NCBI GenBank assembly: GCA_944372355.1
Contig: CALVYS010000003.1
Location: forward strand, 28-64,027
Origin: an uncultured Clostridia bacterium
GTDB lineage: Bacteria > Bacillota > Clostridia > Christensenellales > UBA1242
Length of the DNA: 64,000 nucleotides
Reading direction: 5' to 3'
How positions within the stretch are numbered: position 1 is the first letter of the stretch; each line of letters opens with the position of its first letter. The notes beneath the pieces are model-generated. The model did no database searches. It was given only the letters and a program-made list of their open reading frames with translations, and had not been told where the DNA came from. Positions 12,848 through 60,447 of this stretch are shown in pieces. The position numbers were made by a program, and so were the translations under genes.

Positions 12848-13462
12848 ATGGAAGAAGAAAAAACTTGGGAACAACCACAAGAGGAACAGGCAGATGCCGA
12901 TGAAAAGGCGATTGAAAACAGTGCCGCTAGTGAAAGTGGCTCCCAAGCACAAGGCGAATTTGGAAAGTTCAAGTCGGCGGAGGCTTTGCTGGCAGCTTAC
13001 AACGCACTTGAAGCCGAATTCACCAGAAAAAGTCAAAGGCTGAGTGAAATTGAGAAGGAGCAAGCGCAATCAACAACCGCGCTCGATCCCAAACAGGTTG
13101 AAAGCGAATTGAATGCGTTTCTTTCGAAAAGTCAGGAGGCTGCGCCATATGCTGATGAGCTTAAAAAGATGGCTTTAAAGCAAGATGGCAAACCCGATTT
13201 TGACAAACTCTACGCAGCTTTGGCAGTTGCCAAGCTTGAAAGTGGCGAGTCAAAAAAGGAAAACCCAATCATTCAAAAATATGTTTTTCAAGACGAGGAA
13301 CTTAAAAATTTCGTGGTCGAGAATTACATGAAACAGCTCAAAAATCAAAGACCACCGATTGTCATCAACAGCGATGTTGGAGAAAGAGTGACCGGTCAAA
13401 AACCGGCCACTCCAAAATCGCTAGAAGAGGCAAAAAAGTTGGTTGAGGAGCTGTTTAGTTAA
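12848..13462 (+). CDS. Phage scaffolding protein
   Basis: Acidic, helical, low-complexity 204-aa protein between the portal and capsid genes, with a strong AAAGGAG RBS. Confidence 0.6.
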   Translation: MEEEKTWEQPQEEQADADEKAIENSAASESGSQAQGEFGKFKSAEALLAAYNALEAEFTRKSQRLSEIEKEQAQSTTALDPKQVESELNAFLSKSQEAAPYADELKKMALKQDGKPDFDKLYAALAVAKLESGESKKENPIIQKYVFQDEELKNFVVENYMKQLKNQRPPIVINSDVGERVTGQKPATPKSLEEAKKLVEELFS

Positions 13463-13481
13463 AATTTAAAAGGAGGAAATT

Positions 13482-14720
13482 ATGGCAACAGTTACTTTGG
13501 AGAGTGCCGACAATGCGTTAAAAACCGTTTACCTTGGTGTCATTGCAAACCAACTCAACGTTTCAGCAAATCCATTGCTTACAAAAATTAAAAGATCAAC
13601 CAAAGACATCTGGGGCAAAGAAATCAGAAAACTTGCTCCTTATGGCATCAATGGTGGTGTAGGGGCAGGAACCGAAACCGGTGTGCTTCCTTTCGCTGCA
13701 AGCAACAACTATGCTCAGTTTGTTGCAACATTAAAAAACCTTTATGGAAGAATCGAACTTTCTGACAAGGCAGTGAGAGCTTCTGCAAACAATGCAGGTG
13801 CCTTCGTCAATCTTTTACAAGACGAAATGGAGGGGTTGGTTAAAGCAAGCATCTTCAACCTTGGAAGAATGCTTTATGGTGACGGCAGCGGGCTGCTTGC
13901 AACCTGCTCGGGGATTGCCGACGGCCTCATCTCTTGCGACAAGGTCAACAACCTTATCGAAGGAATGAGCATCGACATTTTCAACGGTTCAACACCTCTT
14001 GTAAATCGTGCAAGAGTCACATATGTTGACAGATTGAACAAAAAATTCGCCATCGACAGAACTCTTTCCAGCGTTGCAAGTGGCAGCCAGGTTTATGTTC
14101 AGTCTTCAAAAGCCAATGAAATCACAGGTTTGGGAGCAATTTTCTCAGATTCTGAATATCTTTATGGCTTAAAAAGAGCTGATTACAAATGGCTTAGCCC
14201 ATACACTTCAACTGCTGCAACCGAGGTTTCAGACACATTGATCCAAACTGCAATCGACTTTTTGGAGGAAAACGCTGACTCTCGCATCAACTTTATCGCA
14301 TGCTCTGCACAAGTTCGCCGTGCTTATCAAGCATATCTTGCTGCATATCGTTCAAACGTTGATGTCATGACTTTGGAAGGCGGCTTTAAAGCCATCTCTT
14401 ACAATGGCATTCCACTTGTTACAGACAGATTCGTTGATGAAGACACCATGTATCTGCTCAACACTGACGATTTTGTTTTGCACGAACTTTGCGATTGGAA
14501 GTGGCTGGAAGGCGAGGGCGGAAGAGTGCTCAAACAAAATGCAAACTATCCAACCTACACTGCAACACTCGTAAAATATGCTGAGCTCATCTGCGACAAA
14601 CCAAATGGACAAGCCAAGATCAGCGGCATCAAAGGCACAGTTACAAGCCCATTCACTTTCACTTGCAACTGCACCAACAGCTCTGACGCGTCAGGAACTG
14701 ACTCTGGATCAGAAGGCTAA
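13482..14720 (+). CDS. Phage major capsid protein
   Basis: 412 aa, with the best RBS of the operon (AAAGGAGG). Position follows the scaffold gene, the N-terminal pattern is typical of major capsid proteins, and an attenuator-like hairpin follows. Confidence 0.75.
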   Translation: MATVTLESADNALKTVYLGVIANQLNVSANPLLTKIKRSTKDIWGKEIRKLAPYGINGGVGAGTETGVLPFAASNNYAQFVATLKNLYGRIELSDKAVRASANNAGAFVNLLQDEMEGLVKASIFNLGRMLYGDGSGLLATCSGIADGLISCDKVNNLIEGMSIDIFNGSTPLVNRARVTYVDRLNKKFAIDRTLSSVASGSQVYVQSSKANEITGLGAIFSDSEYLYGLKRADYKWLSPYTSTAATEVSDTLIQTAIDFLEENADSRINFIACSAQVRRAYQAYLAAYRSNVDVMTLEGGFKAISYNGIPLVTDRFVDEDTMYLLNTDDFVLHELCDWKWLEGEGGRVLKQNANYPTYTATLVKYAELICDKPNGQAKISGIKGTVTSPFTFTCNCTNSSDASGTDSGSEG

Positions 14721-14736
14721 TTAACAAATTTTAGGT

Positions 14737-14766
14737 GGGGCAAAAAATTGCCCCTTCTAAATTTTT
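14737..14766 (+). terminator. Possible partial terminator/attenuator after the capsid gene
   Basis: GGGGCAA-aaaa-TTGCCCC followed by TTCTAAATTTTT; the U-tract is interrupted, so termination is probably leaky. Confidence 0.35.
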
Positions 14767-14776
14767 AGGAGAAAAA

Positions 14777-15097
14777 ATGAAAAAACAAATTTTGCTTGAA
14801 AACGACCCTTTTTACATCTCTTCACGCATTAAAGAGGTGGACGAAAACTATTTTTTTGTTTTCAATTCAAAAGAAAAAAGATTCGAACTTCACAACAGTG
14901 CACAAAAGGGCTCAACTTTTGCTTTGGTTGTGCCGTATGAAGTGCTGGACGAGCGGGCGATTTTTCTTGCGCGCAAAACGAGAAAGGAAAACATTGACAA
15001 GTTGGTGCGCGAAATGGACGAGGAAAATCGAAGGCGCGAAGAGAGGCTGAAAAAGCAGGCGTTCGAGCAAATGAGAGAGGTGATATATGAAAGTTAA
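14777..15097 (+). CDS. Hypothetical phage head-associated protein
   Basis: ATG 14777 after GGAGAAAAA; 106 aa with a charged C-terminal helix. The listed 14735 start lies in the hairpin region. Confidence 0.55.
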   Translation: MKKQILLENDPFYISSRIKEVDENYFFVFNSKEKRFELHNSAQKGSTFALVVPYEVLDERAIFLARKTRKENIDKLVREMDEENRRREERLKKQAFEQMREVIYES

Positions 15098-15638
15098 TGA
15101 CGCAATAAAGCTCAGTTGCGATTTTGTAAATTTGCCGGAGCTTAAATCGTTTGTTGGCACAGAAAACGGCGATGACATTCAAAAAGCCAAGCTAAACGCG
15201 CTTTTGAGGTGTTTAAACCTGGCTTATGAAGAAATTTGCACCGAATTTTTGCCAATTTTGAAAAAAGAAGCGATTGTCACTACAAATGGTGAGTTTTATT
15301 TTTCCGACCTTTCGCAGCCGCTTTGCGCAATCATCTCGCTGAAAACGGCGGACGGAAGAAATATAAAGTATTCTCTTTCTTCCGACCATATTTCTTTTGA
15401 AGGTGACAGCGCAGTGCTAGTTTACGCTGTCAAACCTGACGAACTTGAATTTGGCGATGAAACGAAAGTGCTCTTTCCAGAAAGAGTGCTGGCCTATGGC
15501 ACTGCGAGAGAGTTCTTTCTCATGCAAGCCCTTTCTGATGAAGCGCTGATTTTTGAAAACCGATTTAAAGAGAGTCTTGAAAATCTGGTTCGCAAAAAAT
15601 CGGCTTTGATTTGGCCACGCAGACAATGGATTAGATAG
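15087..15638 (+). CDS. Putative head-tail adaptor/connector protein
   Basis: 183 aa; overlaps the upstream ORF by 11 nt. Position and size resemble head-completion (P22 gp4-position) proteins. No motif-level support. Confidence 0.4.
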   Translation: MKVNDAIKLSCDFVNLPELKSFVGTENGDDIQKAKLNALLRCLNLAYEEICTEFLPILKKEAIVTTNGEFYFSDLSQPLCAIISLKTADGRNIKYSLSSDHISFEGDSAVLVYAVKPDELEFGDETKVLFPERVLAYGTAREFFLMQALSDEALIFENRFKESLENLVRKKSALIWPRRQWIR

Positions 15639-15648
15639 GGAGGTGGCA

Positions 15649-17124
15649 ATGTTCAAGAAAAAAAATCTGACAGCAAAAGAAACCGAGAAAATGACGGTGC
15701 GGTTTTCGGATTTTTCAAGCTGGGAGGACATCAGCGACAGCAAGCGCAAGAGCACCGACACAAAAGAGTGCTACAACTTTGTCATAAACCGAGGCGATCT
15801 GGAAGCTGGTTATGGTTTCAAACAGTTGGCGCTGCCAAATTCGACAACCGATCTGACTGATTACAGTTTTGAAGTTGATGCCACCGAGGTTTTTGGCATT
15901 TGGATGGCGCCAATTTACGATTCCTACTCAGGGCAGGATAAATACTATGTTTTTTATTTAGACGAAGGCAAAAATGTCTACTTTTTCAACATTTTCAGCA
16001 GCGACAAGTTTATGTATGACGAAGATGTTCAGTTTAACGAAATCCCATATGCCGCACCTTTTAGGATAAACGGCATTGACACGCTGTTGTTTTCGTCTCC
16101 AAGCGATCAAACAGTTGGACTCAGCACAAGCGGCCCGCAGGTTTACAACAACATTCCAAAGTTTCTTTCGGGGTGTTGGCACAAAAACTATTTCTTTTTG
16201 GTCACCACTGGCGATCAAAACGGCCTTGTCTATTCAACTGAGACGATTGCAAATTGGAATGATAACAACAAGTTTGATGTCGAAATTCCAGAGGTGCGCG
16301 GGGGACTTAAAGCTGTCATATCCTTTCACGACGATCTTTTCATTTTTCGTGATTATGGCATAATCAAACTTTCGCTGTATGGAAGTGGCGAAACCAAATT
16401 TGACTTGCAAAATGTCTACTATTCTGCATCTTACATCTATCCATCTTCGATTGCAAAAATTGGAGATTACATCATGTTTGCGACACAAGATGGAGTTTAC
16501 AGCTTTGATGGATCAAACGTCAAAAAGGTGGAGCTCCCATTTGAAAAACTGTTAAATTCCACCAGAAACACTTCGGTTGCCGCAGCATGTTTTGAAAACA
16601 AGTATTTTCTTGCTTGCAAGATCGATTTTGACGACGGAGAGGAGCTTGGGGTTGAAAGCGGAAGTTTTGAAAACAACGCGATCATCGTGTATGATTTGGA
16701 AAACAAAGCTTGCACTCTGATGCGTGGAATCGATGTCAGACAGTTTTGTGTGATCAACACTCCTTATCTGCAAAAACTTTGTGCCATCTTTCGCGGAGAT
16801 AAAAAGGCAAAGGTTGGCGAGCTTACATGCGATGGAAGCTTTTTTGGAACTCAGCTTAAAAAAGTGTGGCGCTCACCACGCACAGATTTCGGTTTCGCGG
16901 GCAAATTAAAAAGAATGATGTCTGTCTCTGTCAAACCACACACGGTTTGTGAAATTGTCATTGAAACAGAAGAGGGAGAAAGCATATCCATCAGTTGCAA
17001 AGACTCTGAAACCACACAAAGATTTCTGGTGAACGCTTTAAGCAAAAGTTTTGTTATTTCCATCATCTCGCAAAGCGCCGGCAGCATTGCTTGCCCAGAA
17101 TTTGAGATTAAGGTTGTTTCATGA
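15649..17124 (+). CDS. Putative neck/tail-hub structural protein
   Basis: ATG 15649 lies 5 nt after GGGAGG (the GTG at 15643 is too close). 491 aa, beta-rich. Position and size resemble P22 gp10-type hub proteins. Inference only. Confidence 0.4.
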   Translation: MFKKKNLTAKETEKMTVRFSDFSSWEDISDSKRKSTDTKECYNFVINRGDLEAGYGFKQLALPNSTTDLTDYSFEVDATEVFGIWMAPIYDSYSGQDKYYVFYLDEGKNVYFFNIFSSDKFMYDEDVQFNEIPYAAPFRINGIDTLLFSSPSDQTVGLSTSGPQVYNNIPKFLSGCWHKNYFFLVTTGDQNGLVYSTETIANWNDNNKFDVEIPEVRGGLKAVISFHDDLFIFRDYGIIKLSLYGSGETKFDLQNVYYSASYIYPSSIAKIGDYIMFATQDGVYSFDGSNVKKVELPFEKLLNSTRNTSVAAACFENKYFLACKIDFDDGEELGVESGSFENNAIIVYDLENKACTLMRGIDVRQFCVINTPYLQKLCAIFRGDKKAKVGELTCDGSFFGTQLKKVWRSPRTDFGFAGKLKRMMSVSVKPHTVCEIVIETEEGESISISCKDSETTQRFLVNALSKSFVISIISQSAGSIACPEFEIKVVS

Positions 17125-17414
17125 TTTTGATCGATCCAAAACATTACAAATTTTTAAACAAAATGTCTTGCAAAGGAGAAGTTATGGCTACTGATAAATT
17201 TATTTCAAACTTAGATGATGACAAATCGGATTTAATAGAGTTCGCAAATGAGGAGGCGGTCGATCTTTATGCCAAACAAAAAAAGGCATATGAAATCACA
17301 TTGGCTTTTTTGAAGCAGTTTGACAGAGAAGTTGCACTCAGCTTTCTTGCCACCAATTTGCAACTCAGGGGCGAGCTTGGCGTGTTTTACGATCATCTTT
17401 TGGAAGAGCTTTGA
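17121..17414 (+). CDS. Hypothetical small phage protein
   Basis: ATGA overlap with the upstream stop. An alternative start at ATG 17184, after AAAGGAG, gives 76 aa (MATDKFISNLDDD...). Confidence 0.5.
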   Translation: MILIDPKHYKFLNKMSCKGEVMATDKFISNLDDDKSDLIEFANEEAVDLYAKQKKAYEITLAFLKQFDREVALSFLATNLQLRGELGVFYDHLLEEL

Positions 17415-17668
17415 TGCAACTTTGGGAAGAGATTGTAAGTGTGATAATAAGCAACGGCATTTTTGCAGTGCTTTTTGTCATACTTTTTTGCTATCAACTT
17501 AAAGACGGAAAAAGGCGAGAGGAGAAATATCAAAAAACCATTGAGGATTTGACAGAACATCTTGGTGTGATTGATGAGATCAAAGCTGATGTTGAATATT
17601 TGAAAGAAAACATCGCACCTAAAAGGAGAAATAAAGATGAATCTCAAAAATCTAGTCAAGTCGTATAG
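17414..17668 (+). CDS. BhlA/UviB-family holin-like protein
   Basis: TGATG start/stop overlap. An N-terminal TM (IISNGIFAVLFVILFCYQL) is followed by KDGKRREEKYQKTIEDLTEHL and a coiled coil, closely resembling BhlA/UviB proteins. Confidence 0.7.
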   Translation: MQLWEEIVSVIISNGIFAVLFVILFCYQLKDGKRREEKYQKTIEDLTEHLGVIDEIKADVEYLKENIAPKRRNKDESQKSSQVV

Positions 17669-17930
17669 CTTTTGGACAGCGCTTGCAGGTGCACTTGTCA
17701 TTTTGATAAACTCGATTGGAAACATCTTTGGCTTTCAAATTGAAGAAAAACTTGTCAGTGACATAGTTATGGCAATTGCTGGCGTTTTGGTGGCTTTTGG
17801 TGTTGTCACATTGCCATCTTCGACAAAGGATAAAACTCAGCAACAAGAAACTGAAACAAATGAAGATCCGGCTCAAAATGAGCAGCAGGAAGATGAGCAA
17901 TCAGATGACAAGCAAAATCCATCTGTCTAA
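17637..17930 (+). CDS. Phage holin (phi LC3-like, two TM)
   Basis: AGGAG RBS. FWTALAGALVILINSIG and VMAIAGVLVAFGVV helices with a highly acidic C-terminal tail. Overlaps the previous ORF by 32 nt. Confidence 0.65.
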   Translation: MNLKNLVKSYSFWTALAGALVILINSIGNIFGFQIEEKLVSDIVMAIAGVLVAFGVVTLPSSTKDKTQQQETETNEDPAQNEQQEDEQSDDKQNPSV

Positions 17931-17939
17931 ACGCAAAAT

Positions 17940-17968
17940 AGGGAGGGTAAATCGCCCTCCCTTTTTTT
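17940..17968 (+). terminator. Strong rho-independent terminator closing the phage-like operon
   Basis: GGGAGGG-taaatcg-CCCTCCC followed by T7. Confidence 0.85.
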
Positions 17969-17979
17969 ATCGTATTAAT

Positions 17980-18008
17980 TTGACAAAAATCGGGAAATAT
18001 GTTATTAT
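17980..18008 (+). promoter_or_regulatory. Sigma-A-type promoter
   Basis: TTGACA (17980-17985), 17-nt spacer, TATTAT (18003-18008). Confidence 0.6.
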
Positions 18009-18028
18009 ACAAATATATGGAGGTTGGC

Positions 18029-18688
18029 ATGGCATTATTTGGTGGAAAGACAAACGCAGAAGAACGCAAATATGTTTTAAACGATGGAAAGCTCGAATAC
18101 TTTTTGACTGAGCCGGAACTCGACGAAATCGATTACTTTACGATTGCGGACGATAAAAACAGTTTGCAGGCTGTTATGAAAAATGAAAAAGTGTATCCTC
18201 TCAAACTTTCAACATTTGGTGGGTTTATGTTTGATGAAGAACCAGATTCAACAGCTGAAAATTCCGCTTGCAAGCGATTGGAAAGAGCCGGAGTGGAAGC
18301 CGAAAAAATGTTGACAGAACAAAATGCTTTTCCAACCAATACACAGTTTATTCCTGAAATTGGAGCTTTCCGTCAATATGAAAATGGAAAGATTTCGTAT
18401 TACAGCTTGATCGGTGACAGGATTGACAACATAACCCTTTATACTTTGGGTTTGAATTCACTTGTTGCAAATGCACCTTTCATTGTAAGCAATGGCACTC
18501 CAAAAACCTACTGTCAAAAACCACAAAACATCTCTTCGCTTTGGCAAGCATATGAAACCTACGCGTCATGTTTTCCGGCGAACAAAACTGCTCTTATAAC
18601 TCAAGAAATGTATTTGACAAACATTTCAGATCTTTTGAGCAGGGAAGTGAGCGATAAAAAATATTCTAAACAGATTTTGGACAGATAA
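18029..18688 (+). CDS. Hypothetical protein (219 aa), own promoter and terminator
   Basis: ATG 18029 lies 5 nt after GGAGG (MALFGGKTNAEERKY...). No signal peptide or recognisable motif. Confidence 0.55.
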   Translation: MALFGGKTNAEERKYVLNDGKLEYFLTEPELDEIDYFTIADDKNSLQAVMKNEKVYPLKLSTFGGFMFDEEPDSTAENSACKRLERAGVEAEKMLTEQNAFPTNTQFIPEIGAFRQYENGKISYYSLIGDRIDNITLYTLGLNSLVANAPFIVSNGTPKTYCQKPQNISSLWQAYETYASCFPANKTALITQEMYLTNISDLLSREVSDKKYSKQILDR

Positions 18689-18715
18689 AAAAAACGGGCA
18701 TGAGCCCGTTTTTAT
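18688..18715 (+). terminator. Rho-independent terminator
   Basis: ACGGGC-atga-GCCCGT followed by a T-run. Confidence 0.8.
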
Positions 18716-18720
18716 TTTTA

Positions 18721-18745
18721 AAAAAATCGGACATACGGTCCGATT
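18721..18745 (-). terminator. rpsT terminator
   Basis: On the minus strand, ATCGGAC-cgtat-GTCCGAT followed by T6; it overlaps the rpsT stop. Confidence 0.75.
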
Positions 18746-19013
18746 AGTTTGTTCTGATTTTGTCAAGCTGCTTTGCAAATTTTGATTTTCTTCTTGCAGC
18801 ACAGTTTGCATGAATAACGCCATCTGACACGGCACTGTCTAAAACAGAGGTAACTTCGCTGTAAGCTTTTTCAGCAACAGAAACATCTCCCGAAGCAACT
18901 GCGGCTTGGAATTTTTTTGTGTAAGTTGAAATTTTAGACTTAACTGATCTGTTTTGTGCGCGTTTCTTTTCGATAATCAAAATTCTCTTTTTAGCGGATT
19001 TGATGTTAGCCAT
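18744..19013 (-). CDS. rpsT: 30S ribosomal protein S20
   Basis: MANIKSAKKRILIIEKKRAQNRSVKS...; 89 aa. Confidence 0.95.
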   Translation of the reverse strand: MANIKSAKKRILIIEKKRAQNRSVKSKISTYTKKFQAAVASGDVSVAEKAYSEVTSVLDSAVSDGVIHANCAARRKSKFAKQLDKIRTN

Positions 19014-19113
19014 TTCTATCTCCTTGATTAAAGTCTACGGAGATTGTATCACAACCGTCGAAAAAAAGCAAGTAAAAATTATAAAAAATTCAATTTTGGT
19101 CAAAATTAGCAGT

Positions 19114-19872
19114 ATGATCGATCTTATTGATGAATGCGGGCAGGATTTAAAAGGCCTGGGCTATGAAAAATGTAAAGATGGTTTGTTTTCTTTGACCTCT
19201 GGAAGGTTGGAGGTCGACTCAGCGGCAAAAGCCAACCAAACCGGGTTTGACAAGGGCAGCTATTACATTTACAACTGCCCACTTTTGCATGAATTTGGAA
19301 GGGAGTGCTTTGATTATGTTTCGGACGAGGTTGGAAAGGGCCTTAGGCGGCTTATGCGCAAACATGGCTTGAACAAAAAGTCGAGGATCTTGTTGGTTGG
19401 CCTGGGAAATCCAAAAATTCTGGCCGACGCTCTTGGAAGTTTGGCACTTGACAAGGTGGAGATAGATCCATTTAAAAAATCCTTGCGTCTTTTTAAATTT
19501 GCGCCAAACATATTTTCAGCAACTGGCATCAACTCCTTTGACGTTGTGCATATGCTGGCGATTTGGCTTGATGTTGATGGAGTGATAGTGATAGACTCGC
19601 TTGCGACAAACTCGATCAGCAGACTTGCCACTTCATTTCAACTTAACGATGCTGGCATGACGCCGGGCAGCGCTGTGAACAATCTTGGGCAAAAACTTTG
19701 TCGGGCAACGCTTGGCGTGACGTGCCTTTCAATCGGAGTCCCAACCATGCTGCTTGCAGGCAAGGCCAAACCCGATTGGCCAGACGATCTCATTCTAACG
19801 CCCAAAGATGTGCATCAAAACCTTGAAAATGTGGCGCGTGTTGTGGCGGAGGCGATCAACAAATATGTGTAA
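19114..19872 (+). CDS. gpr: GPR (spore germination) endopeptidase, peptidase A25-like
   Basis: Motifs LLVGLGNPKILADALG and VIVIDSLA..QLNDAGMTPGSAV. The gene is divergent from rpsT, as in Bacillus. Start set to the first ATG that does not overlap rpsT; start position is uncertain. Confidence 0.65.
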   Translation: MIDLIDECGQDLKGLGYEKCKDGLFSLTSGRLEVDSAAKANQTGFDKGSYYIYNCPLLHEFGRECFDYVSDEVGKGLRRLMRKHGLNKKSRILLVGLGNPKILADALGSLALDKVEIDPFKKSLRLFKFAPNIFSATGINSFDVVHMLAIWLDVDGVIVIDSLATNSISRLATSFQLNDAGMTPGSAVNNLGQKLCRATLGVTCLSIGVPTMLLAGKAKPDWPDDLILTPKDVHQNLENVARVVAEAINKYV

Positions 19873-19901
19873 AATCATCGCCCTCTTGCATATATATCTA
19901 T

Positions 19902-20615
19902 GTGAAAAATGTGGCGATCATCGACAGTGGCAGCGGCGGAATCAATGTTTTAAAAACGCTTTTACAAGAATGCGAAGGGTTTAATTTTTTATATCTTGCC
20001 GACACCGCGTGCGCACCTTATGGAGAAAAAAGCAAAAAGTTTTTAAAGGGCAGAGCAGAAGAGCTTGTGCTTTTTTTGAAAAAAATTTTCTCGCCAGAAA
20101 TCATAGTTTTTGCTTGCAACACGTTGACTGCGGCTGCAATTAAAAGCGTCAGAAAATCGCACCCAGAAATTGAGTTCGTTGGCTGCGAACCTGCCATCAA
20201 GCCTGCCTGTGAAAAGTTTGATCAAAAAGATGTTTTGGTGCTGGCAACTCCCGTGACTATAAAAGAGAGCAGGCTGATAAAAAAGTATCCGCAGCTTCAA
20301 ACCATGGCGTTGCCAGAGCTTCCGATGCTGATAGATCAAAACCTGTTTGAACTTGAAAATCTAAACGAATATTTGGCTCAAATTTTGAAAGATGCCAGTT
20401 CTCCTGCCGTCGTGCTTGGCTGCACTCATTTTGAAGCGGTTCGCGGTCAAATTGCCGATTTGACTGGTGCTGAAATCTTTGGATCCAGCGAGGGGATTGC
20501 CAAAAGATTGCAAACCTTTTCAGATGGCGATCATCAAACAAACTGCTGTTTTATGACCACCGGCGATCCTGAAATTTTGCCAAAATTTTACCATTATTTA
20601 ACAAAAAATTCTTAA
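19902..20615 (+). CDS. murI: Glutamate racemase
   Basis: IIDSGSGG, FACNTLTAAA and VLGCTHF motifs; GTG start. Confidence 0.9.
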   Translation: MKNVAIIDSGSGGINVLKTLLQECEGFNFLYLADTACAPYGEKSKKFLKGRAEELVLFLKKIFSPEIIVFACNTLTAAAIKSVRKSHPEIEFVGCEPAIKPACEKFDQKDVLVLATPVTIKESRLIKKYPQLQTMALPELPMLIDQNLFELENLNEYLAQILKDASSPAVVLGCTHFEAVRGQIADLTGAEIFGSSEGIAKRLQTFSDGDHQTNCCFMTTGDPEILPKFYHYLTKNS

Positions 20616-23989: not shown

Positions 23990-24661
23990 ATGCTTTCAAT
24001 CAAACATCTTTATTTGAAATACACTCGTGAATTTTATGCGCTGTTTGACATCAATCTGGAAGTTAAAGATGGAGAATCAGTCGCTCTCGTTGGAATGGAC
24101 GACAGTGGAAAAACCAGCTTGCTCAGAGTGATTGCCAAACTCGAAAAACCGACAAAAGGTGAGGTTTATTTGAAAGATCGTCCTTTAAAAAAGGTCAACT
24201 TTCGTTCGGATATAAGCGCTGGATATGTGCCAGCTTCACCTGTGTTTTTGGAAAACAAAACGGTTTATGAAAATTTTAAATATATTTTGAGCGAACGCAA
24301 GTTGCCGCCAGAAGAGATCGAAAACAAGATCAATCAAGCGGTCATAGATTTTGCACTTGAAAAAATCAAAGATGAAAAGGTGGGCAACCTGTCAGTGGAG
24401 GAAAAATATATTCTTTCGCTGATTCGCTTGTCATTTAGAAAATTGGATTTTCTGATGATTGACAACATCTTTGACCATCTTTCAGAGTTTTATCTTGAAA
24501 TTATTGATGAAATCATAGAAAAATTAAAAACGCCGCAAACCACGCTCGTGCTTGCGACAACAGATGAAAAAATTGCAGACAGATTCTACAAGAGAAAGGT
24601 TTACTTTAAAAATGGTTCGGTGGTTTCACAAAGCGAGTATTACGACAAAACCGAAGCTTAA
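23990..24661 (+). CDS. ABC-type ATPase-like protein with degenerate signature and Walker B
   Basis: Walker A GMDDSGKTS is present. The signature position reads LSVEEKY rather than LSGGQ, and Walker B reads FLMIDNIF with no DE. No adjacent permease gene. Confidence 0.7.
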   Translation: MLSIKHLYLKYTREFYALFDINLEVKDGESVALVGMDDSGKTSLLRVIAKLEKPTKGEVYLKDRPLKKVNFRSDISAGYVPASPVFLENKTVYENFKYILSERKLPPEEIENKINQAVIDFALEKIKDEKVGNLSVEEKYILSLIRLSFRKLDFLMIDNIFDHLSEFYLEIIDEIIEKLKTPQTTLVLATTDEKIADRFYKRKVYFKNGSVVSQSEYYDKTEA

Positions 24662-25026
24662 TCGTCAGGGAATGGTTTTTCTTTCGGGCCGGAAGGCTCG
24701 GAAGATTTTTTTTTGCTGCTGCTTGCAGAGTTTGTCATTGAGGAAAGCACGCTTAAAAGAGGATTGATTTGATCTTGTGATCCGTTTGCAAGTGCGCTCA
24801 ATGCGTCTTGTGAAAGTGTCTGTGCGCTTTGTCCGCCCATCAACATTTTGACAAGCAGTGGCAGCATGGGATTGCCACTCAAACCTCCGTTTTTTTGCAT
24901 CTGCTCATTTTGCCCCTCTGAACGCATAAAAGCCGAGGGATTGTTTTGCTCGGAATATGCCTCTGGTGGATAGAGCGGAAGAGAATCTTTAAAGTTCATA
25001 TCAAATATATATGCCACACATTTCAC
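24658..25026 (-). CDS. Hypothetical low-complexity protein
   Basis: 122-aa ORF, Q/S/N/P-rich, with no convincing RBS. Coding status is uncertain. Confidence 0.35.
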   Translation of the reverse strand: MKCVAYIFDMNFKDSLPLYPPEAYSEQNNPSAFMRSEGQNEQMQKNGGLSGNPMLPLLVKMLMGGQSAQTLSQDALSALANGSQDQINPLLSVLSSMTNSASSSKKKSSEPSGPKEKPFPDD

Positions 25027-51180: not shown

Positions 51181-52236
51181 ATGTTGATAAGCTCGAAACA
51201 GTCGCGGAAAAGAATGATTGTGCAAGGCAAAACGATCAGTGGGCTCAACTTCAACTCCACATCATCTTCTGCAATTGCAATTTTCAACTACACCTCTGGT
51301 GCAACAATTAAAAACTTGAATTTGAGTGGCGTAAGCATCACAACCTCTTCACAAGTTCCAGTTGGCGCTTTGGTTGGGCAGGCAACAAACACCATTTTTG
51401 AAGACATCACGGTTTCACAAGCCTCCATATCTTCCGCAGGAGCTGCGGGAGCACTCGTCGGCAGCATGAGCGGTGGCGAGGCACACAATGTGAGCATCTC
51501 ATCAAGCAACATCACTTCTCAAACAGCAGCTGGTGGTGTGGCTGGCACAATGAACGGAGCAGAGCTTTCACAAATCACCTCAATAGGCAGCAGTTTCACC
51601 TCTTCAAGCGGCGATGCTGGTGCGATCGTGGGCTCGGCAACAGGTGGCAGCATTCGCGTTTCCAGCGCTTCAAATGCAACGCTTTCGGCAGCAAATGCCG
51701 GCGGCATAGTGGGCAGTGGATCAGGGGTGCAGATCACAACTGTGCAAGCCTCGGCATTGACATCACAAAACAGCACTTATTTCGGAATGATTGCGGGCAG
51801 CATTTCAAATGGTTCGATTTTGACTGGCGCAAACATAAGTTTGACAAACGCCATCTCAGCTTCGCAAGCGGCAGGTGCGGTTGTCGGCAGAGGCGAGGCG
51901 TCAACGATAACTTTGACAAACGTCAACTCTTATTGGACGGCTTCATCTGGAACCATTTCTGCAATCAATGTGGGTGGTTTGATAGGTGAGGCGACAAACA
52001 TGACAAGCATCACAGACAATCGAATAAGCGGCCTTGTGCTTTCACCAACTTCTGCATCAGGAAGCGTAGGCCAAATTTATGGCACACTTTCGGGAAGCTC
52101 GGGAGCAAGCAGCAATCTCTATCGCGAAATCACAGTTTCAAATGATGTTGGTGCAACTTACATAAACATGGGTGGCACGCAGGTGACTGAAACCACGGAC
52201 ACCGCAACAGTGACAATAACTTGGACACTGGTTTAA
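51181..52236 (+). CDS. GLUG-motif beta-helix repeat protein without signal peptide (possibly 5'-truncated)
   Basis: About 11 repeats of roughly 25 aa carrying G-G/A-[LIV]-[VI]-G (VGALVGQ, AGALVGS, AGGVAGT, AGAIVGS, AGGIVGS, VGGLIGE). The N-terminus begins mid-repeat (..GKTISGLNF). RBS is weak. Confidence 0.6.
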   Translation: MLISSKQSRKRMIVQGKTISGLNFNSTSSSAIAIFNYTSGATIKNLNLSGVSITTSSQVPVGALVGQATNTIFEDITVSQASISSAGAAGALVGSMSGGEAHNVSISSSNITSQTAAGGVAGTMNGAELSQITSIGSSFTSSSGDAGAIVGSATGGSIRVSSASNATLSAANAGGIVGSGSGVQITTVQASALTSQNSTYFGMIAGSISNGSILTGANISLTNAISASQAAGAVVGRGEASTITLTNVNSYWTASSGTISAINVGGLIGEATNMTSITDNRISGLVLSPTSASGSVGQIYGTLSGSSGASSNLYREITVSNDVGATYINMGGTQVTETTDTATVTITWTLV

Positions 52237-54717: not shown

Positions 54718-54803
54718 TGGTGCCGCTGGTGGGAGTCGAACCCACATGAAGTTGCCCTCAACGGATTTTGAGTCCGTCGCGTCTGCCATTCCGCCACAGC
54801 GGC
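54718..54803 (-). tRNA. tRNA-Leu (anticodon CAA), class II with long variable arm, encoded CCA
   Basis: Hand-folded as GCCGCTG/CAGCGGC acceptor, ACGGA-CTCAAAA-TCCGT anticodon arm and GTGGG-TTCGACT-CCCAC T-arm; 86 nt. Confidence 0.9.
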
Positions 54804-54850: not shown

Positions 54851-55011
54851 CTTTTTTTTGCTAAAAATTTAAAATCATTTTATTTTCAAAATTACAGCCG
54901 TTTTTATATATTTTGCCGTCATAAAAGCGTCAGAAATTAGCCAATTTAGCGTCATTTTTCGACAATTTTGTAAAAAAATCGCAAAAACTAAAAAAATTTT
55001 GGCATTTAAAT

Positions 55012-55040
55012 TTGACTATTATTAATATGATTTTTATAAT
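55012..55040 (+). promoter_or_regulatory. Near-consensus sigma-A promoter with a ~170-nt leader before the regulator gene
   Basis: TTGACT (55012-55017), 17-nt spacer, TATAAT (55035-55040). Confidence 0.6.
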
Positions 55041-55218
55041 TTTTGGTGTATAAACGCAAGCGGCGACGGCCTTTTGCGCAGAGGCGATTGATTGCGGTTT
55101 GTGCTTTTACACTTCAATCAAAATTTTTAATGATAAGCAAATAAAAACTTAACAAAATTTGGCCTAATTTTAGGTTACAGCGTTTTTATTGCAAAAATAA
55201 TAATTAAAGGGGAAAAAA

Positions 55219-55734
55219 ATGCAAAATCATGTTTGGGGCAAAACTTTGCTTTCGGTTTATCGTTACTTGGAAAGGATAGCAGATGCTATTGACAACATAA
55301 TTGAAAAAAAAGCTGTGCAAACATCTTCCATGCTGGGAAGTGATGCTCTTTCACATAACACGCTTGCGCTTGCAAACAAAATCATCGATCTTTCAGAAAG
55401 AAAAGTAAAACTTATCAACATCAAATTGTTGACAGAACAGGCTTTGGCAGCGATGGATCCAAAAGGCGCCAAAATTTTGATTATGAAATATTTTGACAAT
55501 GCCTCTTGTGAAGAAATTTTGTCTGCGCTTTCTCTTTCAAGGAGAACATATTTCCGTAGAATAGGCGAAATGGAAGCGGCGTTTGAAGCAAGCTGTGCGA
55601 TGTTTGGCTTTCCAATGGAGAGGCTGGATTCCTATCTTGCAAATGAGGCCTGGATCATGAATGTCAAAGCCTCTTTTCAAAAAGGGGTGGAAAGCCCGTT
55701 GCAGCTGAGTCGAAGCGAGAGAATGTGTTTATAG
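55219..55734 (+). CDS. Sigma-70 region-4-like HTH protein / phage late-gene regulator-like
   Basis: 171 aa. ILIMKYFDNASCEEILSALSLSRRTYFRRIGEMEAAFEA matches the ...RTYFR...A...F HTH pattern of small phage-associated sigma-like regulators of Firmicutes. Family-level call only. Confidence 0.55.
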   Translation: MQNHVWGKTLLSVYRYLERIADAIDNIIEKKAVQTSSMLGSDALSHNTLALANKIIDLSERKVKLINIKLLTEQALAAMDPKGAKILIMKYFDNASCEEILSALSLSRRTYFRRIGEMEAAFEASCAMFGFPMERLDSYLANEAWIMNVKASFQKGVESPLQLSRSERMCL

Positions 55735-56502
55735 GTCATCTTCGTTGAATTCGTAATAATCCTTGTGTCCTTTTCGAGAAAAAATTCTGCGTCGTGAGGT
55801 TTTGAGTTTTTTGGAAGGGCTCAGCAGCAAATACAAAATCACAAGGCATGGCAGGCTCACGGCCAGTATGATTATCGCGATCACCGTGTCGCTCAAACCT
55901 CCATTTTCTGGCGTTTGCGAAGAAAATTGCAACTCGCCTGTGATTTCAGGAAAGTATTCTGTGTTTTCTGTAAAACCATCAAAGATGTCACAATAATATG
56001 AAAAAGCATAGCCAAAAGTGCTGACCCCATCGATGGTCGCATTGCAGTAGTACCAGATATTTGTCGAGTTTGGAAAAAGTTCTTGACCAGTTGTGGTGCC
56101 GTAAAGGGTGTATTCCTCCAAAAAGTCAAGTTTTCCAAGTGTCGCACTCGAATTTGTTGGTTGAGACTGCAAATTGAGGCCGTTGTCATTAAAGTTTCTA
56201 AAAACTTCGTTAGGGTAAGGTGAAGTTGGAACTCCGTCCATTGGTGTCACTTCATCTTTTTTTACGTAGCCATACAGGTCCAGATATTTGGCGCGATAAA
56301 AATCTCCCTCTTGGCCTATCAGCAAAACAAAATAGGTGTTTGGCAGGGTGAAAAGCGAGCTGGATTCGCTTGCCGAGGAGTAAAAGTTTGCTTGGTTTAA
56401 AACTTTGGCATAGTATGTTAAAGTTTCCTCTGCTTTGACAGAGATGGAAGGCAGAGAGGGGGTTAGAAATGCAATCAACAGCAAAAACACTAATTTTTTC
56501 AT
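55729..56502 (-). CDS. Exported, C-terminally membrane-anchored protein with SH3b-like repeats
   Basis: Signal peptide (LLLIAFLTPSLPSISVKA). Two SH3b-like segments are present (e.g. GDFYRAKYLDLYGYVKKDEV), followed by a C-terminal TM and a basic tail. Confidence 0.6.
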   Translation of the reverse strand: MKKLVFLLLIAFLTPSLPSISVKAEETLTYYAKVLNQANFYSSASESSSLFTLPNTYFVLLIGQEGDFYRAKYLDLYGYVKKDEVTPMDGVPTSPYPNEVFRNFNDNGLNLQSQPTNSSATLGKLDFLEEYTLYGTTTGQELFPNSTNIWYYCNATIDGVSTFGYAFSYYCDIFDGFTENTEYFPEITGELQFSSQTPENGGLSDTVIAIIILAVSLPCLVILYLLLSPSKKLKTSRRRIFSRKGHKDYYEFNEDDL

Positions 56503-56566
56503 GGCTATATTTTAAACTCTGTCAGTTTGAAAATTAAAAGATTATTCTGTCAATTATGGAGGAGAG

Positions 56567-58000
56567 ATGTCAGAATTACTAGAAAAGCTTAAACTTTTAG
56601 AGCGTGAGCTCGAACGCCGGCGTCCCAATGCCAATCTAGCAAACTACAACACAGGTGCAAAAGTGCATTTAAAGCAACTGGAATTTCACAAATGCAAAAA
56701 GCGCAACCGCTGGGTGTTTGGTGGAAACAGAAGTGGGAAGAGCGAATGTGGAGCGGTGGAGGTCGTATATATGGCTCGCGGCATACACCCATATCGCGAA
56801 AATCGCAAAAATGTTTCTGGTTGGGTGGTCAGTCTTTCAAAACAGGTGCAAAGAGATGTCGTTCAGCAAAAGATCTTGCATTATTTGAACCCAGCTTGGA
56901 TCGAAAAGGTTGTGATGCAAAGCGGAAGTGAGGGTTCGCCGGAGACAGGAATCATCGACTTTATTTTGATAAAAAATGTGTTTGGAGGGCTGAGTAAAAT
57001 TGGCTTTAAAAGTTGTGATCAGGGTCGAGACAAATTCCAGGGCACTTCACTTGATTTTGTCTGGTTTGACGAGGAGCCTCCGTTTGAAATCTATCGTGAA
57101 TGTCAAATGCGTGTGTTGGACAGAAGAGGGGATATTTTTGGCACTATGACGCCGCTTAAAGGATTGAGCTGGGTTTACAATGAAATATATTTAAACGCCT
57201 CCGGTTCACCTGAAATTTGGTGTGAACATATGCAGTGGGAGGACAACCCTTTCATTTCAAAAGAGGAAATCGCATTGCTTTCACAAACCATGTCGGAGGA
57301 AGAGCTTGAATCGCGAAAATATGGCAAGTTCACCGCTCTTGGCGGCTTGGTGTATCCAGAATTTGATCCAAACATTCATGTTATAGAGCCTTTTGAAGTG
57401 CCACAGGAATGGCAGGACAACATTTCGATTGACCCTGGGCTTAACAATCCGCTTTCCGCACATTTTTATGCCGTGGATTATGATGGAAATGTGTTTGTGG
57501 TGGCGGAACATTTTGAAGCCAAAAAAGATGTCGCATACCATGCAAAAAAGATCAAAGCACTGGCCGAAAAGTTGAATTGGCACTATGCTCCAAATGGCAT
57601 GCTTTCTGCTTTGATCGACAGCGCTGCCTCGCAGCGCACGCTTGCCAGCCAAAAAAGTGTGGTCGACCTTTTCTATGAGCACGGAATTTTGACCAATCCC
57701 AAAGTGAACAAGGACATGTTTTCTGGAATTTCCACAGTCAAGCGCTATTTGAAAGACGGTGAGGGAAAAACACATCTTTTCATATTTAAAAATTGCGTAA
57801 ATCTTATTCAAGAATTTAAAACCTATTTCTGGGGAGATGCGGACTTGCCTATTAAAAAAGATGACCATGCGTTGGACGAGCTTCGATATTATCTCATGAC
57901 AAAACCTTCGCCAAATCACTCATTGCCAGAAAAGAGTGCGATAGAAAAGGACAAGGAACGGTTGATCAGAAAATTGCGCTTGAAAAACAAAATGTTTTGA
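56567..58000 (+). CDS. Phage terminase large subunit (intact, orphan; PBSX/XtmB-like)
   Basis: Walker A FGGNRSGKS, Walker B LDFVWFDEEP, coupling motif GTMTP. Nuclease acidic residues sit in ISIDPG, LIDSAA and KKDDHALDELRY. 477 aa with a GGAGGAG RBS. Confidence 0.85.
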   Translation: MSELLEKLKLLERELERRRPNANLANYNTGAKVHLKQLEFHKCKKRNRWVFGGNRSGKSECGAVEVVYMARGIHPYRENRKNVSGWVVSLSKQVQRDVVQQKILHYLNPAWIEKVVMQSGSEGSPETGIIDFILIKNVFGGLSKIGFKSCDQGRDKFQGTSLDFVWFDEEPPFEIYRECQMRVLDRRGDIFGTMTPLKGLSWVYNEIYLNASGSPEIWCEHMQWEDNPFISKEEIALLSQTMSEEELESRKYGKFTALGGLVYPEFDPNIHVIEPFEVPQEWQDNISIDPGLNNPLSAHFYAVDYDGNVFVVAEHFEAKKDVAYHAKKIKALAEKLNWHYAPNGMLSALIDSAASQRTLASQKSVVDLFYEHGILTNPKVNKDMFSGISTVKRYLKDGEGKTHLFIFKNCVNLIQEFKTYFWGDADLPIKKDDHALDELRYYLMTKPSPNHSLPEKSAIEKDKERLIRKLRLKNKMF

Positions 58001-58068: not shown

Positions 58069-60447
58069 ATGAAAAAGTTTTACGCATTCGTTTTAACATT
58101 TTCACTTGCTCTTTTGGCGCTGACTCCACTTTCTTTGGAGATGGGTTCTGCACGCGCCGATGATGTGAGCTCAGTTGAAATCAGCTCAGCGGCAGATTTG
58201 CAAGATGTTGCAGTTGCAGTCAATGGTGGCACTGATGATTATTCTGGCAAGGTTTTGACTTTGACAGATGACATAACTATCACTGGAAACTGGACGCCTA
58301 TTGGCAGCGTCTCAAATCCATTTAGGGGCAGTTTAGATGGGGCAGGCCATTCGATAAACATTGAAAACGCCAATGTCAGCACTGAGGCCTATCAAGGGCT
58401 TTTTGGTTATGCAGAAGGCGGAGAGTTTAAAAACGTGCAGCTTGTTGGTCAAATCATGTCCGATGCCAATGGCGACTTGACAACAACTTACGCCACTGAT
58501 CAGATCTTTGCAGGAATGCTGATGGGCTATGGCAGCAATGTCGTGATTGAAAGCTGTGAGCTTTTAAGTGAGCAAAACCAAACGGTGAAGATCAGAAACA
58601 TTTCAACCATTGGCGCACTTGCAGGAAAGCTTTCAAGCTCCACGGTAAAAAATGTGGTCTCATATGCAAATCTAAGTTTTGATTATGAACTTGCAAACAC
58701 CTGCCGAGTAAGAATTGGCGGCGTGATTGGCGAAGCTGAATATGTCAACATTGAAAAATTGGGTTCGTTTGGAACGACAAATCTTACATACAGTTCAGTC
58801 ATTTCGCCACAAGTTGCATCAACTTTCTATGTTGGTGGAATGATTGGAGATTTAAAAGGTGGCAGCATCATTGACAGCGTGCAGGGCTCTGCGGTTGGCA
58901 TAACAAGCAGAAATGATGTGGACAGCTATGTTTGCGGCTCGATTTTTGGAATCATTACAAACAGTCCAGCAAATGGCAACCTTCAATCGATTGCTTATGC
59001 TCCAAGCGGCACCGGATCGGAGCAACTTGGCATCTGCGGTGAAGGAGAGTTGCAAAGCGCTGATTACATAGTTCCGGTTTCTGAACAAGTGATCTTTACA
59101 ACTTCATTTTACACAAATGGCACTCAGGATTTTGCTTGGAAACAAGACGCTGAAATCTGGGATTTTGAAAGCACCTGGGTGATCGTTTCAGAAAATTCGA
59201 GTCAGCTTCGTCTGCAAATCTTCCAATTTTTTGACATAACACTCTCTGGCGCAGTGGATTCCAACAATTTGCTCGTCAGCCTCTCGTCTCAAACACAAAA
59301 TGAGCGCACTCAATATGGCAAGCAAAAACAGTTGCAGGCAAGGTTCCAGGGCGAAAATGAAGGCATTTTGGTGGACAATTCAAAATATTATGAAATCTCC
59401 GAAATTCGCCGAAACGGCAGCTTGTTAAGTTATGTCACCTTTGAAGAGGGCCCATCTGGTGAAATGATTTGGCAGGGTGAAGATGTGACTCTGACAAAAA
59501 CTCAACAGGCAGGCTCAACAGTCTACACTTTGACAGTGACAGCTTCCAGTGCGACTGAGGGCGAGTATTCCTTCGTACTTTCGCCAATCAACTATCCAGC
59601 ATACATCGTTGCAGGGCAGCTTCAAGACGGAACAATTCAAACCGATGCAAATGGTGGAGTGAGGTATCGCGGAAACGCTGATGAAAATGAATCCATCATT
59701 CGCTCGCTTTACAAAGGCAACACGATCGAGGTTGAGGCCATAGGTCATTCAACCTATGCTTTCGGTGGTTGGACGCTTTATTATTTAAATTCACAAGGTG
59801 ATGTCTCTTACAATGGGCAAAGATGGTCCGCTGCGTCAAGCGATCTGTTTGAAAGCACTGCAAATCCACTTTCAATCACCTTTGGAGGCACCAACACTTC
59901 TGAAACTGCATTCAACCAAACCTTCTTGCTTGTTGCAAGTTTTGTCAGTGATCCTTGCACGTTGACTTTCAGTTATGATTCAAACTTTATCACCAGAGTT
60001 GAAGTCAATGGACAAAATGTGAGCGGCAGTGGAACTTCGGTCATCTTAGACAAAAATCAAAACGTGACATTGAGGATTTACATGAGCGAAAACGCCTCGT
60101 TAAATGCCGACAACTTGCTCTCTTCGATTAGAAGTCTGTTCGTTTCAGATTCTTCAAGATTGAATCACGAAGTGTTCAACGATCTTGACGGCACAGGGCA
60201 GGTGGTGCATGAATTCACATTCTCAACTTCTGCAATAAACTATGCCACCTCATCTCAGTTCAACCTGAATTTGCGTGCAACTGAGGGTGTAGATGATGGC
60301 CAACCTGACAACACGATTTGGATTGTGGTTGGCGTTGTTGGCGGTGTGATCTTGCTTGCAGCGATTGGTTTGACCGTTTGGCTTGTTCTCAGACGCAAAG
60401 CGCTCAACAACACACGAAATGATGATTACAAGCGTTATTACTACTAA
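58069..60447 (+). CDS. GLUG-motif surface protein with C-terminal TM anchor
   Basis: Signal peptide ending SARA-DD. NPFRGSLDGAGHSINIEN..YQGLFGY and repeated [IV]GG[VM]IG segments, then beta-rich domains, then the TM IWIVVGVVGGVILLAAIGLTVWLVL followed by RRK. Confidence 0.75.
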   Translation: MKKFYAFVLTFSLALLALTPLSLEMGSARADDVSSVEISSAADLQDVAVAVNGGTDDYSGKVLTLTDDITITGNWTPIGSVSNPFRGSLDGAGHSINIENANVSTEAYQGLFGYAEGGEFKNVQLVGQIMSDANGDLTTTYATDQIFAGMLMGYGSNVVIESCELLSEQNQTVKIRNISTIGALAGKLSSSTVKNVVSYANLSFDYELANTCRVRIGGVIGEAEYVNIEKLGSFGTTNLTYSSVISPQVASTFYVGGMIGDLKGGSIIDSVQGSAVGITSRNDVDSYVCGSIFGIITNSPANGNLQSIAYAPSGTGSEQLGICGEGELQSADYIVPVSEQVIFTTSFYTNGTQDFAWKQDAEIWDFESTWVIVSENSSQLRLQIFQFFDITLSGAVDSNNLLVSLSSQTQNERTQYGKQKQLQARFQGENEGILVDNSKYYEISEIRRNGSLLSYVTFEEGPSGEMIWQGEDVTLTKTQQAGSTVYTLTVTASSATEGEYSFVLSPINYPAYIVAGQLQDGTIQTDANGGVRYRGNADENESIIRSLYKGNTIEVEAIGHSTYAFGGWTLYYLNSQGDVSYNGQRWSAASSDLFESTANPLSITFGGTNTSETAFNQTFLLVASFVSDPCTLTFSYDSNFITRVEVNGQNVSGSGTSVILDKNQNVTLRIYMSENASLNADNLLSSIRSLFVSDSSRLNHEVFNDLDGTGQVVHEFTFSTSAINYATSSQFNLNLRATEGVDDGQPDNTIWIVVGVVGGVILLAAIGLTVWLVLRRKALNNTRNDDYKRYYY

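Follow-up and report, generated by a model that had tools for sequence, protein, structure and literature searches.

The window analysed here is a stretch of 64,000 nucleotides (64 kb) from contig CALVYS010000003.1 of an uncultured Clostridia bacterium (assembly GCA_944372355.1), a piece of bacterial chromosome from a spore-former-like Clostridia lineage. It contains a gene for the large subunit of a phage terminase (TerL) and, in another part of the window, an operon of phage head genes; the gap between operon and TerL is 38.6 kb, and the starts of the capsid and TerL genes are 43.1 kb apart. A first-pass annotation of this DNA had taken TerL and the head operon for complementary halves of one system. 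Co-occurrence, adjacency in relatives, shared ancestry and a shared promoter architecture bear this out. The features of the TerL locus are the following (aa, amino acids; RBS, ribosome-binding site).

54913-54999, no strand assigned: array of CGTCA/TTCGACA boxes with the repeat TTTGTAAAA, upstream of the regulator promoter
55000-55040, forward strand: regulator promoter (TGGCA box 55000-04, -35 TTGACT 55012-17, -10 TATAAT 55035-40), conserved in nearly all regulator-bearing loci
55041-55218, forward strand: 5' leader of ~170 nt with a GC-rich hairpin (55045-55113), seen in the window and relatives L008 and L009 only
55219-55734, forward strand: sigma-region-4-like regulator, 171 aa, of late-activator type (DUF1492/ArpU/RinA-like) by family matches and structural model
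55729-56502, reverse strand: SH3-like membrane protein, 257 aa (sub-threshold SH3_3 match); gene convergent with the regulator gene and divergent from TerL
56503-56566, no strand assigned: divergent control region with conserved motifs (-10 of the SH3 gene 56509-14 on the reverse strand, TGTCAG 56520-25, TGTCAAT 56548-54, RBS 56558-64)
56567-58000, forward strand: large terminase TerL, 477 aa, its catalytic motifs fully preserved (Pfam, PHROG, invariant motifs)
58069-60447, forward strand: surface protein, 792 aa, with signal peptide and C-terminal anchor; accompanies the insert and split states described below

The terminase gene and the head operon

The open reading frame (ORF) of 477 aa is intact, as the annotation had described it, and its product shows both features by which large terminases were judged, namely ASCE ATPase motifs in the N-terminal part and the acidic residues of an RNase-H-like nuclease in the C-terminal part. 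It matches Pfam Terminase_6N (E = 1.6e-12, 48 bits; cutoff 22) and PHROG 2, "terminase large subunit" (E = 6.6e-32); residues 241-446, the nuclease half, match PHROG 5653 and PHROG 10250. Terminase_6C, called in many homologues, scores 17.6 bits and is below its cutoff in the window protein. Walker A (G52-K58), Walker B (V165-P171), the coupling motif (G192-P196) and the nuclease positions D289, D351 and D432/D433/D437 are invariant in an alignment of 16 sequences of 68-100% identity. The RBS reported for the gene is present as GGAGGAG, and its neighbours are likewise those originally named, the SH3-like membrane protein and the 792-aa surface protein, with no capsid gene adjoining. There is no terminator between TerL and the surface-protein gene, whose membership in the system is uncertain. 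The surface protein distantly resembles the product of a 351-aa Glug-like ORF at 51181-52236 (28-30% identity, tblastn).

The head genes form an operon that extends from a promoter at 10431 to an intrinsic terminator.

10419-10459, forward strand: head-operon promoter (TGGCA box 10419-23, -35 TTGAAT 10431-36, -10 TAAAAT 10454-59), its architecture kept in relatives
10486-10809, forward strand: truncated protein resembling the small terminase subunit (TerS), 107 aa (PHROG 309)
10772-10993, forward strand: Cys-rich ORF, 73 aa, overlapping the TerS-like and portal genes; a 73-aa gene occupies the same place in L005 and L107
10990-12846, forward strand: portal protein, 618 aa (Pfam P22_portal, 4.4e-12; SU10_portal; PHROG 156, 2.2e-33)
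12848-13462, forward strand: putative scaffolding protein, 204 aa, assigned from its location between the portal and capsid genes, an acidic helical sequence and conservation in relatives; no family match
13482-14720, forward strand: major capsid protein, 412 aa (NCBIfam NF033394 capsid_maj_Podo, 284.5 bits, cutoff 80; PHROG 14242, 1.7e-54)
14735-15097, forward strand: putative head/connector protein, 120 aa, its position conserved in relatives
15087-15638, forward strand: head-tail adaptor-like protein, 183 aa (weak Pfam SU10_adaptor match, E = 0.0016, below cutoff), conserved in 31 loci
15643-17124, forward strand: conserved structural protein, 493 aa, its position conserved at 22-46% identity
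17121-17414, forward strand: 97-aa protein with a weak match to the C-terminal end of DUF7934
17411-17930, forward strand: two holins, of the BhlA (17411-17668) and Phage_holin_1 (17637-17930) families (Pfam 3.7e-16 and 2.6e-06; PHROG 297, 2.5e-12)
17940-17962, forward strand: intrinsic terminator of the head operon, a stem of 9 pairs (6 G-C) followed by TTTTTTT

Orthologues of the TerS-like protein match PHROG 309, "terminase small subunit", in 23 of 24 cases. As the match of the window protein is confined to the middle of the profile (positions ~196-242 of 319), the protein looks like a TerS core that lacks the N-terminal part; a profile search found no solved relative. The 493-aa protein is possibly a tail or nozzle component. 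In L078, where TerL and the head genes are contiguous, the slot of the 97-aa gene holds a full DUF7934 protein of 300 aa (17093-17995), and the 97-aa gene may have been truncated in the split lineage. Just past the operon (17980-18713) lies a 229-aa ORF (17999-18688) with a near-consensus promoter (TTGACA-17-TATTAT with TG) and a terminator of its own. No family match was obtained for it; it could supply a missing lysis or structural function.

Between the two loci are genes for gpr, GroEL, GyrB/GyrA, SSB, iPGM, GreA, RNase J and TsaE/TsaB and, further on, for MreB, a ParA-like ATPase and DegV. The product of gpr scores above the curated cutoff of the GPR endopeptidase equivalog model. The G+C content is even over the window (~0.40-0.45) and equals the host level. 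In the window and in L002, L005, L031 and L078 the flanking and intervening genes are host genes, and no integrase, primase, repressor or replication gene was found in or beside the cluster. The flanks vary by lineage (SSB, Na/Ala symporter, MatE, VanW, OGG, DinB, Tex, ABC transporter, rpsT, gpr); within lineages, chromosomal position and flanking genes are conserved.

Linkage, inheritance and ancestry

About 5000 homologues of TerL are detectable. The best 120 share 68-85% identity and measure 471-496 aa, and many of these are encoded on contigs of 100-440 kb; the capsid protein, with more than 6000 homologues, shows the same pattern. The annotation had proposed to look for co-occurrence and common phylogeny of the two genes. 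Contigs of 270,448, 280,116 and 266,490 bp indeed carry both TerL and the capsid gene, and paired TerL/capsid identities track each other (83/79, 75/74 and 70/69%). In a scan of one genome per species of the Genome Taxonomy Database (GTDB), at least 597 species genomes contained TerL at 63-85% identity. Record titles among the TerL-bearing genomes include Christensenella, Christensenellaceae, Ca. Borkfalkia and Ca. Scatosoma; the named members of the carrier clade are Christensenellales.

Synteny was assessed by tblastn of the window proteins against 81 loci with 10-kb flanks each. In 36 of them the TerS-like, portal, scaffold, capsid, adaptor and 493-aa genes come immediately after TerL (contiguous type). 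Four loci have 3.3-7.2 kb between TerL and the head genes, containing a homologue of the 792-aa surface protein (insert type), and 27 have no head gene within 6-10 kb of TerL (split type); in the other 14 the contig ends too early for a class to be assigned. A gene of the surface-protein type follows TerL in 31 loci. These belong to the insert, split or undetermined types, and the 36 contiguous loci all lack such a gene there; it may be the insertion that broke the operon. The annotation had placed the empty TerL slot of the head operon between TerS and portal, which is the wrong place. As the order in relatives is TerL, TerS-like gene, portal gene, the vacated slot is directly upstream of 10486.

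In a TerL tree, the split loci, including the window, fall into one clade except for L060 and L071, and the basal clades are contiguous. Since true phage relatives (L168, see below) also have TerL beside the portal gene, the contiguous state is taken as ancestral, and the distribution of genes over more than one locus, a trait also of gene transfer agents (GTAs), is a derived state of some members. On ERZ28614667:scaffold_34 (270 kb; TerL 83% identical), the capsid and TerL genes are on the same strand with their starts ~39.5 kb apart. Given the 43.1 kb in the window, this spacing indicates that the split is stably inherited. TerL, seemingly an orphan, was originally the first gene of this domesticated head and packaging operon and has been displaced from it.

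Divergence of the cluster genes is close to that of adjacent host genes. For TerL, identities of 85/80/75% are slightly above those of the host gene DinB next to it (79/73/70%). Nonsynonymous divergence (dN) amounts to 0.12-0.23 in TerL, and the values for capsid and portal lie at 0.23-0.27. The ratio to synonymous divergence (dN/dS) was 0.07-0.18 where dS was computable; in most pairs synonymous sites are saturated, which limits the ratio to bounds. Occurrence in at least 597 species genomes, synteny, saturated dS and host-like divergence together show vertical inheritance under purifying selection, as known for GTAs.

Among 50,697 phage records, the nearest phages are the same for TerL and capsid, at 25-32% identity (Caudoviricetes sp. 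MW202795, Cellulosimicrobium phage DS1, and the Arthrobacter phages Jasmine, Adat, Brad and Casserole). In IMG/VR the TerL family occurs on 57 contigs (L122-L178) with 51-68% identity, followed by a gap to at most 30%. Nearly all of these that are long enough to judge are fragments of the chromosomal cluster and not phage genomes. The clear exception is L168 (IMGVR_UViG_3300031673_000339; 387-20182), whose TerL, portal and capsid proteins are 55, 27 and 32% identical to those of the window. Its upstream part encodes an ImmA/CapP-like protease and a primase-helicase of VapE type (9e-71), and its downstream part a complete head module; it is a genuine mobile relative that would suit as an outgroup. 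In contrast to L168 with its primase and ImmA-like protease, the cluster is devoid of replication, integration and lysogeny functions, as GTAs are.

Regulator and control regions

The small sigma-region-4-like regulator that had been noted upstream of TerL is encoded at 55219-55734, and its family matches Sigma70_r4_2 (21 of 33 members) and DUF1492 (12 of 33), the DUF1492 match of the window protein itself being sub-threshold. It also matches PHROG 36 and PHROG 248, both families of transcriptional regulators/activators. In an AlphaFold2 model (pLDDT 85.6), about 60 residues superpose on region 4 of extracytoplasmic function (ECF) sigma factors with 1.1-2.1 Å, at weak Foldseek E values (>0.1). 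The gene is located upstream of TerL in 49 loci, so that the protein has the traits of a late activator, i.e., a small protein with a sigma-region-4-type helix-turn-helix (HTH) encoded just upstream of terminase genes.

The near-consensus promoter reported for the regulator gene is present (TTGACT-17-TATAAT, 55012-55040; score 11/12) and conserved as TG[GT]CA-N7-TTGACT-17-TATAAT. The unusually long leader of ~170 nt that had been described behind it is present in the window, but is peculiar to it and its closest relatives L008 and L009, whereas other relatives have ~25-40 nt. The hairpin in the leader looks like a lineage-specific insertion. A known RNA element was discarded as an interpretation of the leader, as there was no Rfam match (gathering threshold or E ≤ 1) and its fold was no better than those of shuffled sequences (z-score -1.19).

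A search for motifs common to the control regions had been suggested. A composite promoter is indeed common to the head operon and the regulator gene, but it does not occur in the region 56503-56566 ahead of TerL, for which a shared motif had also been considered. Both strands of the window together contain just two matches to the pattern TG[GT]CA-N7-TTGA-N2-N16-18-TAnnnT, one at the regulator gene (55000) and one at the head operon (10419). Among the related loci (1.4 Mb) there are 45 matches, which mostly lie upstream of the regulator gene or, where the locus is split or has an insert, upstream of the head genes. The same architecture precedes the head genes of the split or insert relatives L005, L089, L091, L056 and L028, with L056 showing a match at both the regulator and the head genes. 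In regulator-less genomes, e.g. L078, the composite match is found upstream of TerL itself. As the shorter promoter core is not enriched (4 matches versus 3.7 expected), the evidence for the promoter lies in its position and conservation. Evidently, the head genes obtained their own copy of the control promoter at the time of their separation.

Further composite copies were observed ~1.3-3 kb upstream of the regulator promoter in L030 (6826), L035 (7044), L087 (7217) and L040 (5382), which suggests that additional genes may be under the same control. In the window, TTTGTCGCAAAA and ATGTGTGGCAT, similar to parts of the two control regions, precede an unannotated ORF of ~112 aa on the reverse strand (24660-25020, start near 24997); this ORF could be a further target of the regulator. 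Reading TGGCAC-N6-TTGA as a sigma-54 promoter was rejected: the spacing exceeds that of the sigma-54 consensus by one base, GA stands in place of the invariant GC, and a proper -10 is found 17 nt further on.

One box of the array that precedes the regulator promoter, TTCGACA (54958-54964), reads on the other strand as TGTCGAA, the 7-bp core of the 0A box bound by Spo0A (PMC3485338). A perfect TGTCGAA core occurs in 22 of 43 orthologous regulator upstream regions versus 0.85 expected, and the core is 15-fold enriched there over the background of the loci, suggesting that the cluster may be under stationary-phase or Spo0A control. Spo0A and sporulation genes have been reported in metagenome-assembled genomes of Christensenellales (PMC11536998), and the window itself contains gpr. 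The composite promoter shared by both loci and the enrichment of the 0A-box core would be compatible with production under host control, and the separate control by the small regulator that the annotation had envisaged is plausible. Directly upstream of the control region is a tRNA-Leu(CAA) gene (54718-54803, reverse strand); in L002, L011, L013, L032, L033 and L035 the upstream sequence likewise enters an apparent tRNA end. The tRNA gene may be what remains of the site where the original phage integrated.

The SH3 gene adjoins TerL, lying between it and the regulator gene, in 62 of 84 TerL-matching loci; in the window it overlaps the regulator gene tail to tail. A conserved TAAAAT ~7 nt ahead of its ATG suggests that the SH3 mRNA is probably leaderless. 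Of 77 regions upstream of TerL, 49 contain a TGTC(G/A/T)AA box (TGTCNWW), where 8.2 would be expected. Its distance to the SH3 -10 (TAAAAT) is 32-33 nt in 30 of 34 loci and 31-33 nt in 31 of 34, whereas that to the TerL ATG varies from 19 to 54 nt; the box is therefore phased with the SH3 promoter. It was dismissed as a motif shared with the head-operon promoter, as it is absent from the latter on the forward strand. The sequence TTGAAA-17-TCAATT, which had been given as a TerL promoter with a poor -10, does exist at 56527-56555, but its -10 ends only 11 nt before the ATG, which makes a promoter unlikely at this place because the transcript would begin within or past the RBS. No forward-strand terminator is predicted between regulator and TerL; TerL may be transcribed by read-through from the regulator promoter or from an activator-dependent start.

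Interpretation and comparison with known systems

We consider it likely, with a probability of roughly three in four, that TerL and the head operon constitute one phage-derived, vertically inherited, domesticated podovirus-like and GTA-like element of gut Clostridia. Comparison of the relatives shows that the ancestral layout was a single operon of ~10 kb with the order control region, activator gene, SH3 gene in reverse orientation, TerL, truncated TerS, portal, scaffold, podovirus-type capsid, connectors, ~490-aa protein and holins. In the clade of the window, according to the same comparison, a surface-protein gene entered after TerL, the head genes next acquired a control-region promoter copy of their own, and a rearrangement put ~40 kb of housekeeping genes between the parts. 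A host signal of stationary-phase or Spo0A type might fire both promoters, and the activator would boost TerL, unless TerL is read through from the activator promoter. TerL and the TerS lacking a DNA-recognition domain would then fill small procapsids with headfuls of host DNA, and the holins would lyse the producer cell.

Several points weigh against this interpretation. The GTA-like particle is a prediction from the genes. Co-occurrence of TerL and head genes has been established for the contiguous loci and a few split genomes out of ~600, and the TerL tree is a neighbour-joining tree rooted at its midpoint. Neither an endolysin nor a tail fibre or receptor-binding protein was recognised in the window, and the 493-aa protein has no match in Pfam, PHROG or PDB, even in a profile search of PDB. 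A convincing promoter for TerL itself is missing from the window, which leaves the activator step a guess; the window does not include spo0A, and the Spo0A reading is one of motif resemblance.

Functional domesticated particles might also serve ends other than gene transfer, such as PBSX-type killing or lysis, release of DNA or cell contents in stationary phase, or a role in sporulation. The lack of a recognisable tail fibre or receptor-binding gene would fit, and the Spo0A-box-like motifs and the position beside rpsT-gpr hint at sporulation. The same alternative has been left open for the closest described system, the podovirus-like FpGTA of Faecalibacterium prausnitzii, which is encoded at two loci and forms particles of ~40 nm with ~8.5-9 kb of host DNA (PMC12946183, Nat Commun 2026). 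However, intact ATPase and nuclease motifs of TerL under purifying selection indicate DNA packaging, and a podovirus-type adaptor and further conserved structural genes have been kept, making particles without a transfer function rather unlikely.

A horizontally spreading prophage or a satellite of the capsid-forming phage-inducible chromosomal island (cf-PICI) type, with a TerL that serves the element or a helper phage elsewhere, appears improbable, even though the pipelines behind IMG/VR flag many such clusters as viral, a tRNA-Leu gene adjoins the control region and a related mobile element exists in L168. Neither an integrase nor a replication module was recognised, nor is a repressor or primase present in or beside the cluster of the five genomes inspected; position and flanks are conserved within lineages, divergence is host-like, and core genes separate the two parts. 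The 40-kb split spans housekeeping genes, which rules out excision as a unit. That the genes are functionless leftovers of a decaying prophage, with their separation as part of the decay, is hardly credible. Such a prophage might be expected from the absence of lysogeny, replication and obvious tail modules and from the 97-aa ORF at 17121 with its resemblance to a truncated DUF7934 protein, but the core ORFs are intact in hundreds of species, with low dN and saturated synonymous sites, and catalytic residues, synteny and promoters are conserved.

The domesticated GTA-like element can tentatively be connected with published observations. GTA-type packaging in Christensenellaceae (HGM11616, QANA01) has been reported from virus-like particles of stool, with read-length peaks of ~6.3 kb and no genes assigned (PMC12946183). 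GTA particles contain more or less random host DNA in fragments shorter than their own gene cluster, and for such packaging by the window system the QANA01 fragments offer indirect support. It is conceivable, though on balance doubtful, that the cluster is the genetic basis of this packaging and represents a second, independently domesticated podovirus-like GTA family across Christensenellales, gated by Spo0A via 0A boxes at the activator promoter and in the TerL/SH3 region, and that the clade of the window has been rewired into two co-regulated loci by promoter duplication. We found no paper describing a Christensenellales GTA cluster in the literature searched.

Bacteria of the Christensenellales type are widespread in animal and human gut metagenomes. 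The cluster, with its occurrence in at least 597 species genomes, is a concrete candidate for the GTA-like packaging of Christensenellaceae; if active, it would provide a major route of gene flow in the uncultured part of the gut microbiome and constitute a second podovirus-type GTA lineage in Gram-positive anaerobes, with a capsid family assignment unlike that of FpGTA. The contiguous, insert and split forms record the break-up and rewiring of a domesticated operon that stayed functional. GTA-like elements as such are already known; the derived layout with TerL apart from the capsid genes is unusual, and the wide distribution had not been described. Pipelines for virus detection score such loci as viral, as in 57 IMG/VR contigs, and thereby inflate virome estimates.

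The late activators RinA, ArpU, LtrC and DUF1492 are small proteins of Gram-positive phages, encoded just upstream of terminase genes. The regulator of the window shares with them the sigma-region-4-like HTH and the position upstream of the terminase, but differs in scoring below the DUF1492 threshold and in having an oppositely oriented membrane-protein gene between regulator and TerL. As to the 0A boxes, phi29 and Nf of Bacillus subtilis have Spo0A-controlled promoters, and Spo0A binding and repression were demonstrated for phi29 (PMC2731898). Both systems are podovirus-type elements of spore-former lineages with 0A-box-like sequences in their control regions; the evidence is demonstrated binding in phi29 and motif enrichment in the window system.

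With the RcGTA-type agents of Alphaproteobacteria, the system has in common that it is domesticated, inherited vertically under purifying selection and spread over several loci (PMC12946183). Host regulators, a TerS lacking sequence-specific DNA binding and holin-dependent release by lysis, all described for RcGTA-type agents (PMC12946183), are presumed for the window system. RcGTA differs in its siphovirus-like nature, its TerL being part of an HK97-type head-tail cluster, in its unrelated sequence, and in its control by CtrA and quorum sensing in place of a putative sigma-region-4-like activator.

FpGTA and the window system are both chromosomal podovirus-like head and packaging clusters of ~10 kb in gut Clostridia, near-ubiquitous in their clades. 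Both have a TerS without an obvious DNA-binding domain, holins, more than one locus and no replication genes. Their hosts belong to different orders. The FpGTA capsid carries the NCBI name "N4-gp56 family" and is preceded by a Prp-like protease, whereas that of the window is capsid_maj_Podo, with no N4-gp56 match at E ≤ 0.01, and is preceded by a scaffold-like gene without a Prp match. FpGTA genes are arranged in the order TerS-TerL-portal, in contrast to TerL followed by the TerS-like gene in the window system; moreover, TerL of FpGTA is part of operon I and the second locus comprises tail and lysis genes, while in the window it is TerL itself that is separated. No Faecalibacterium names occurred among the distant capsid relatives obtained by a representative search and cluster look-up. 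Since capsid family and gene order differ, the window system is regarded, at the level of these family annotations, as working like FpGTA and other GTAs but probably outside the FpGTA family.

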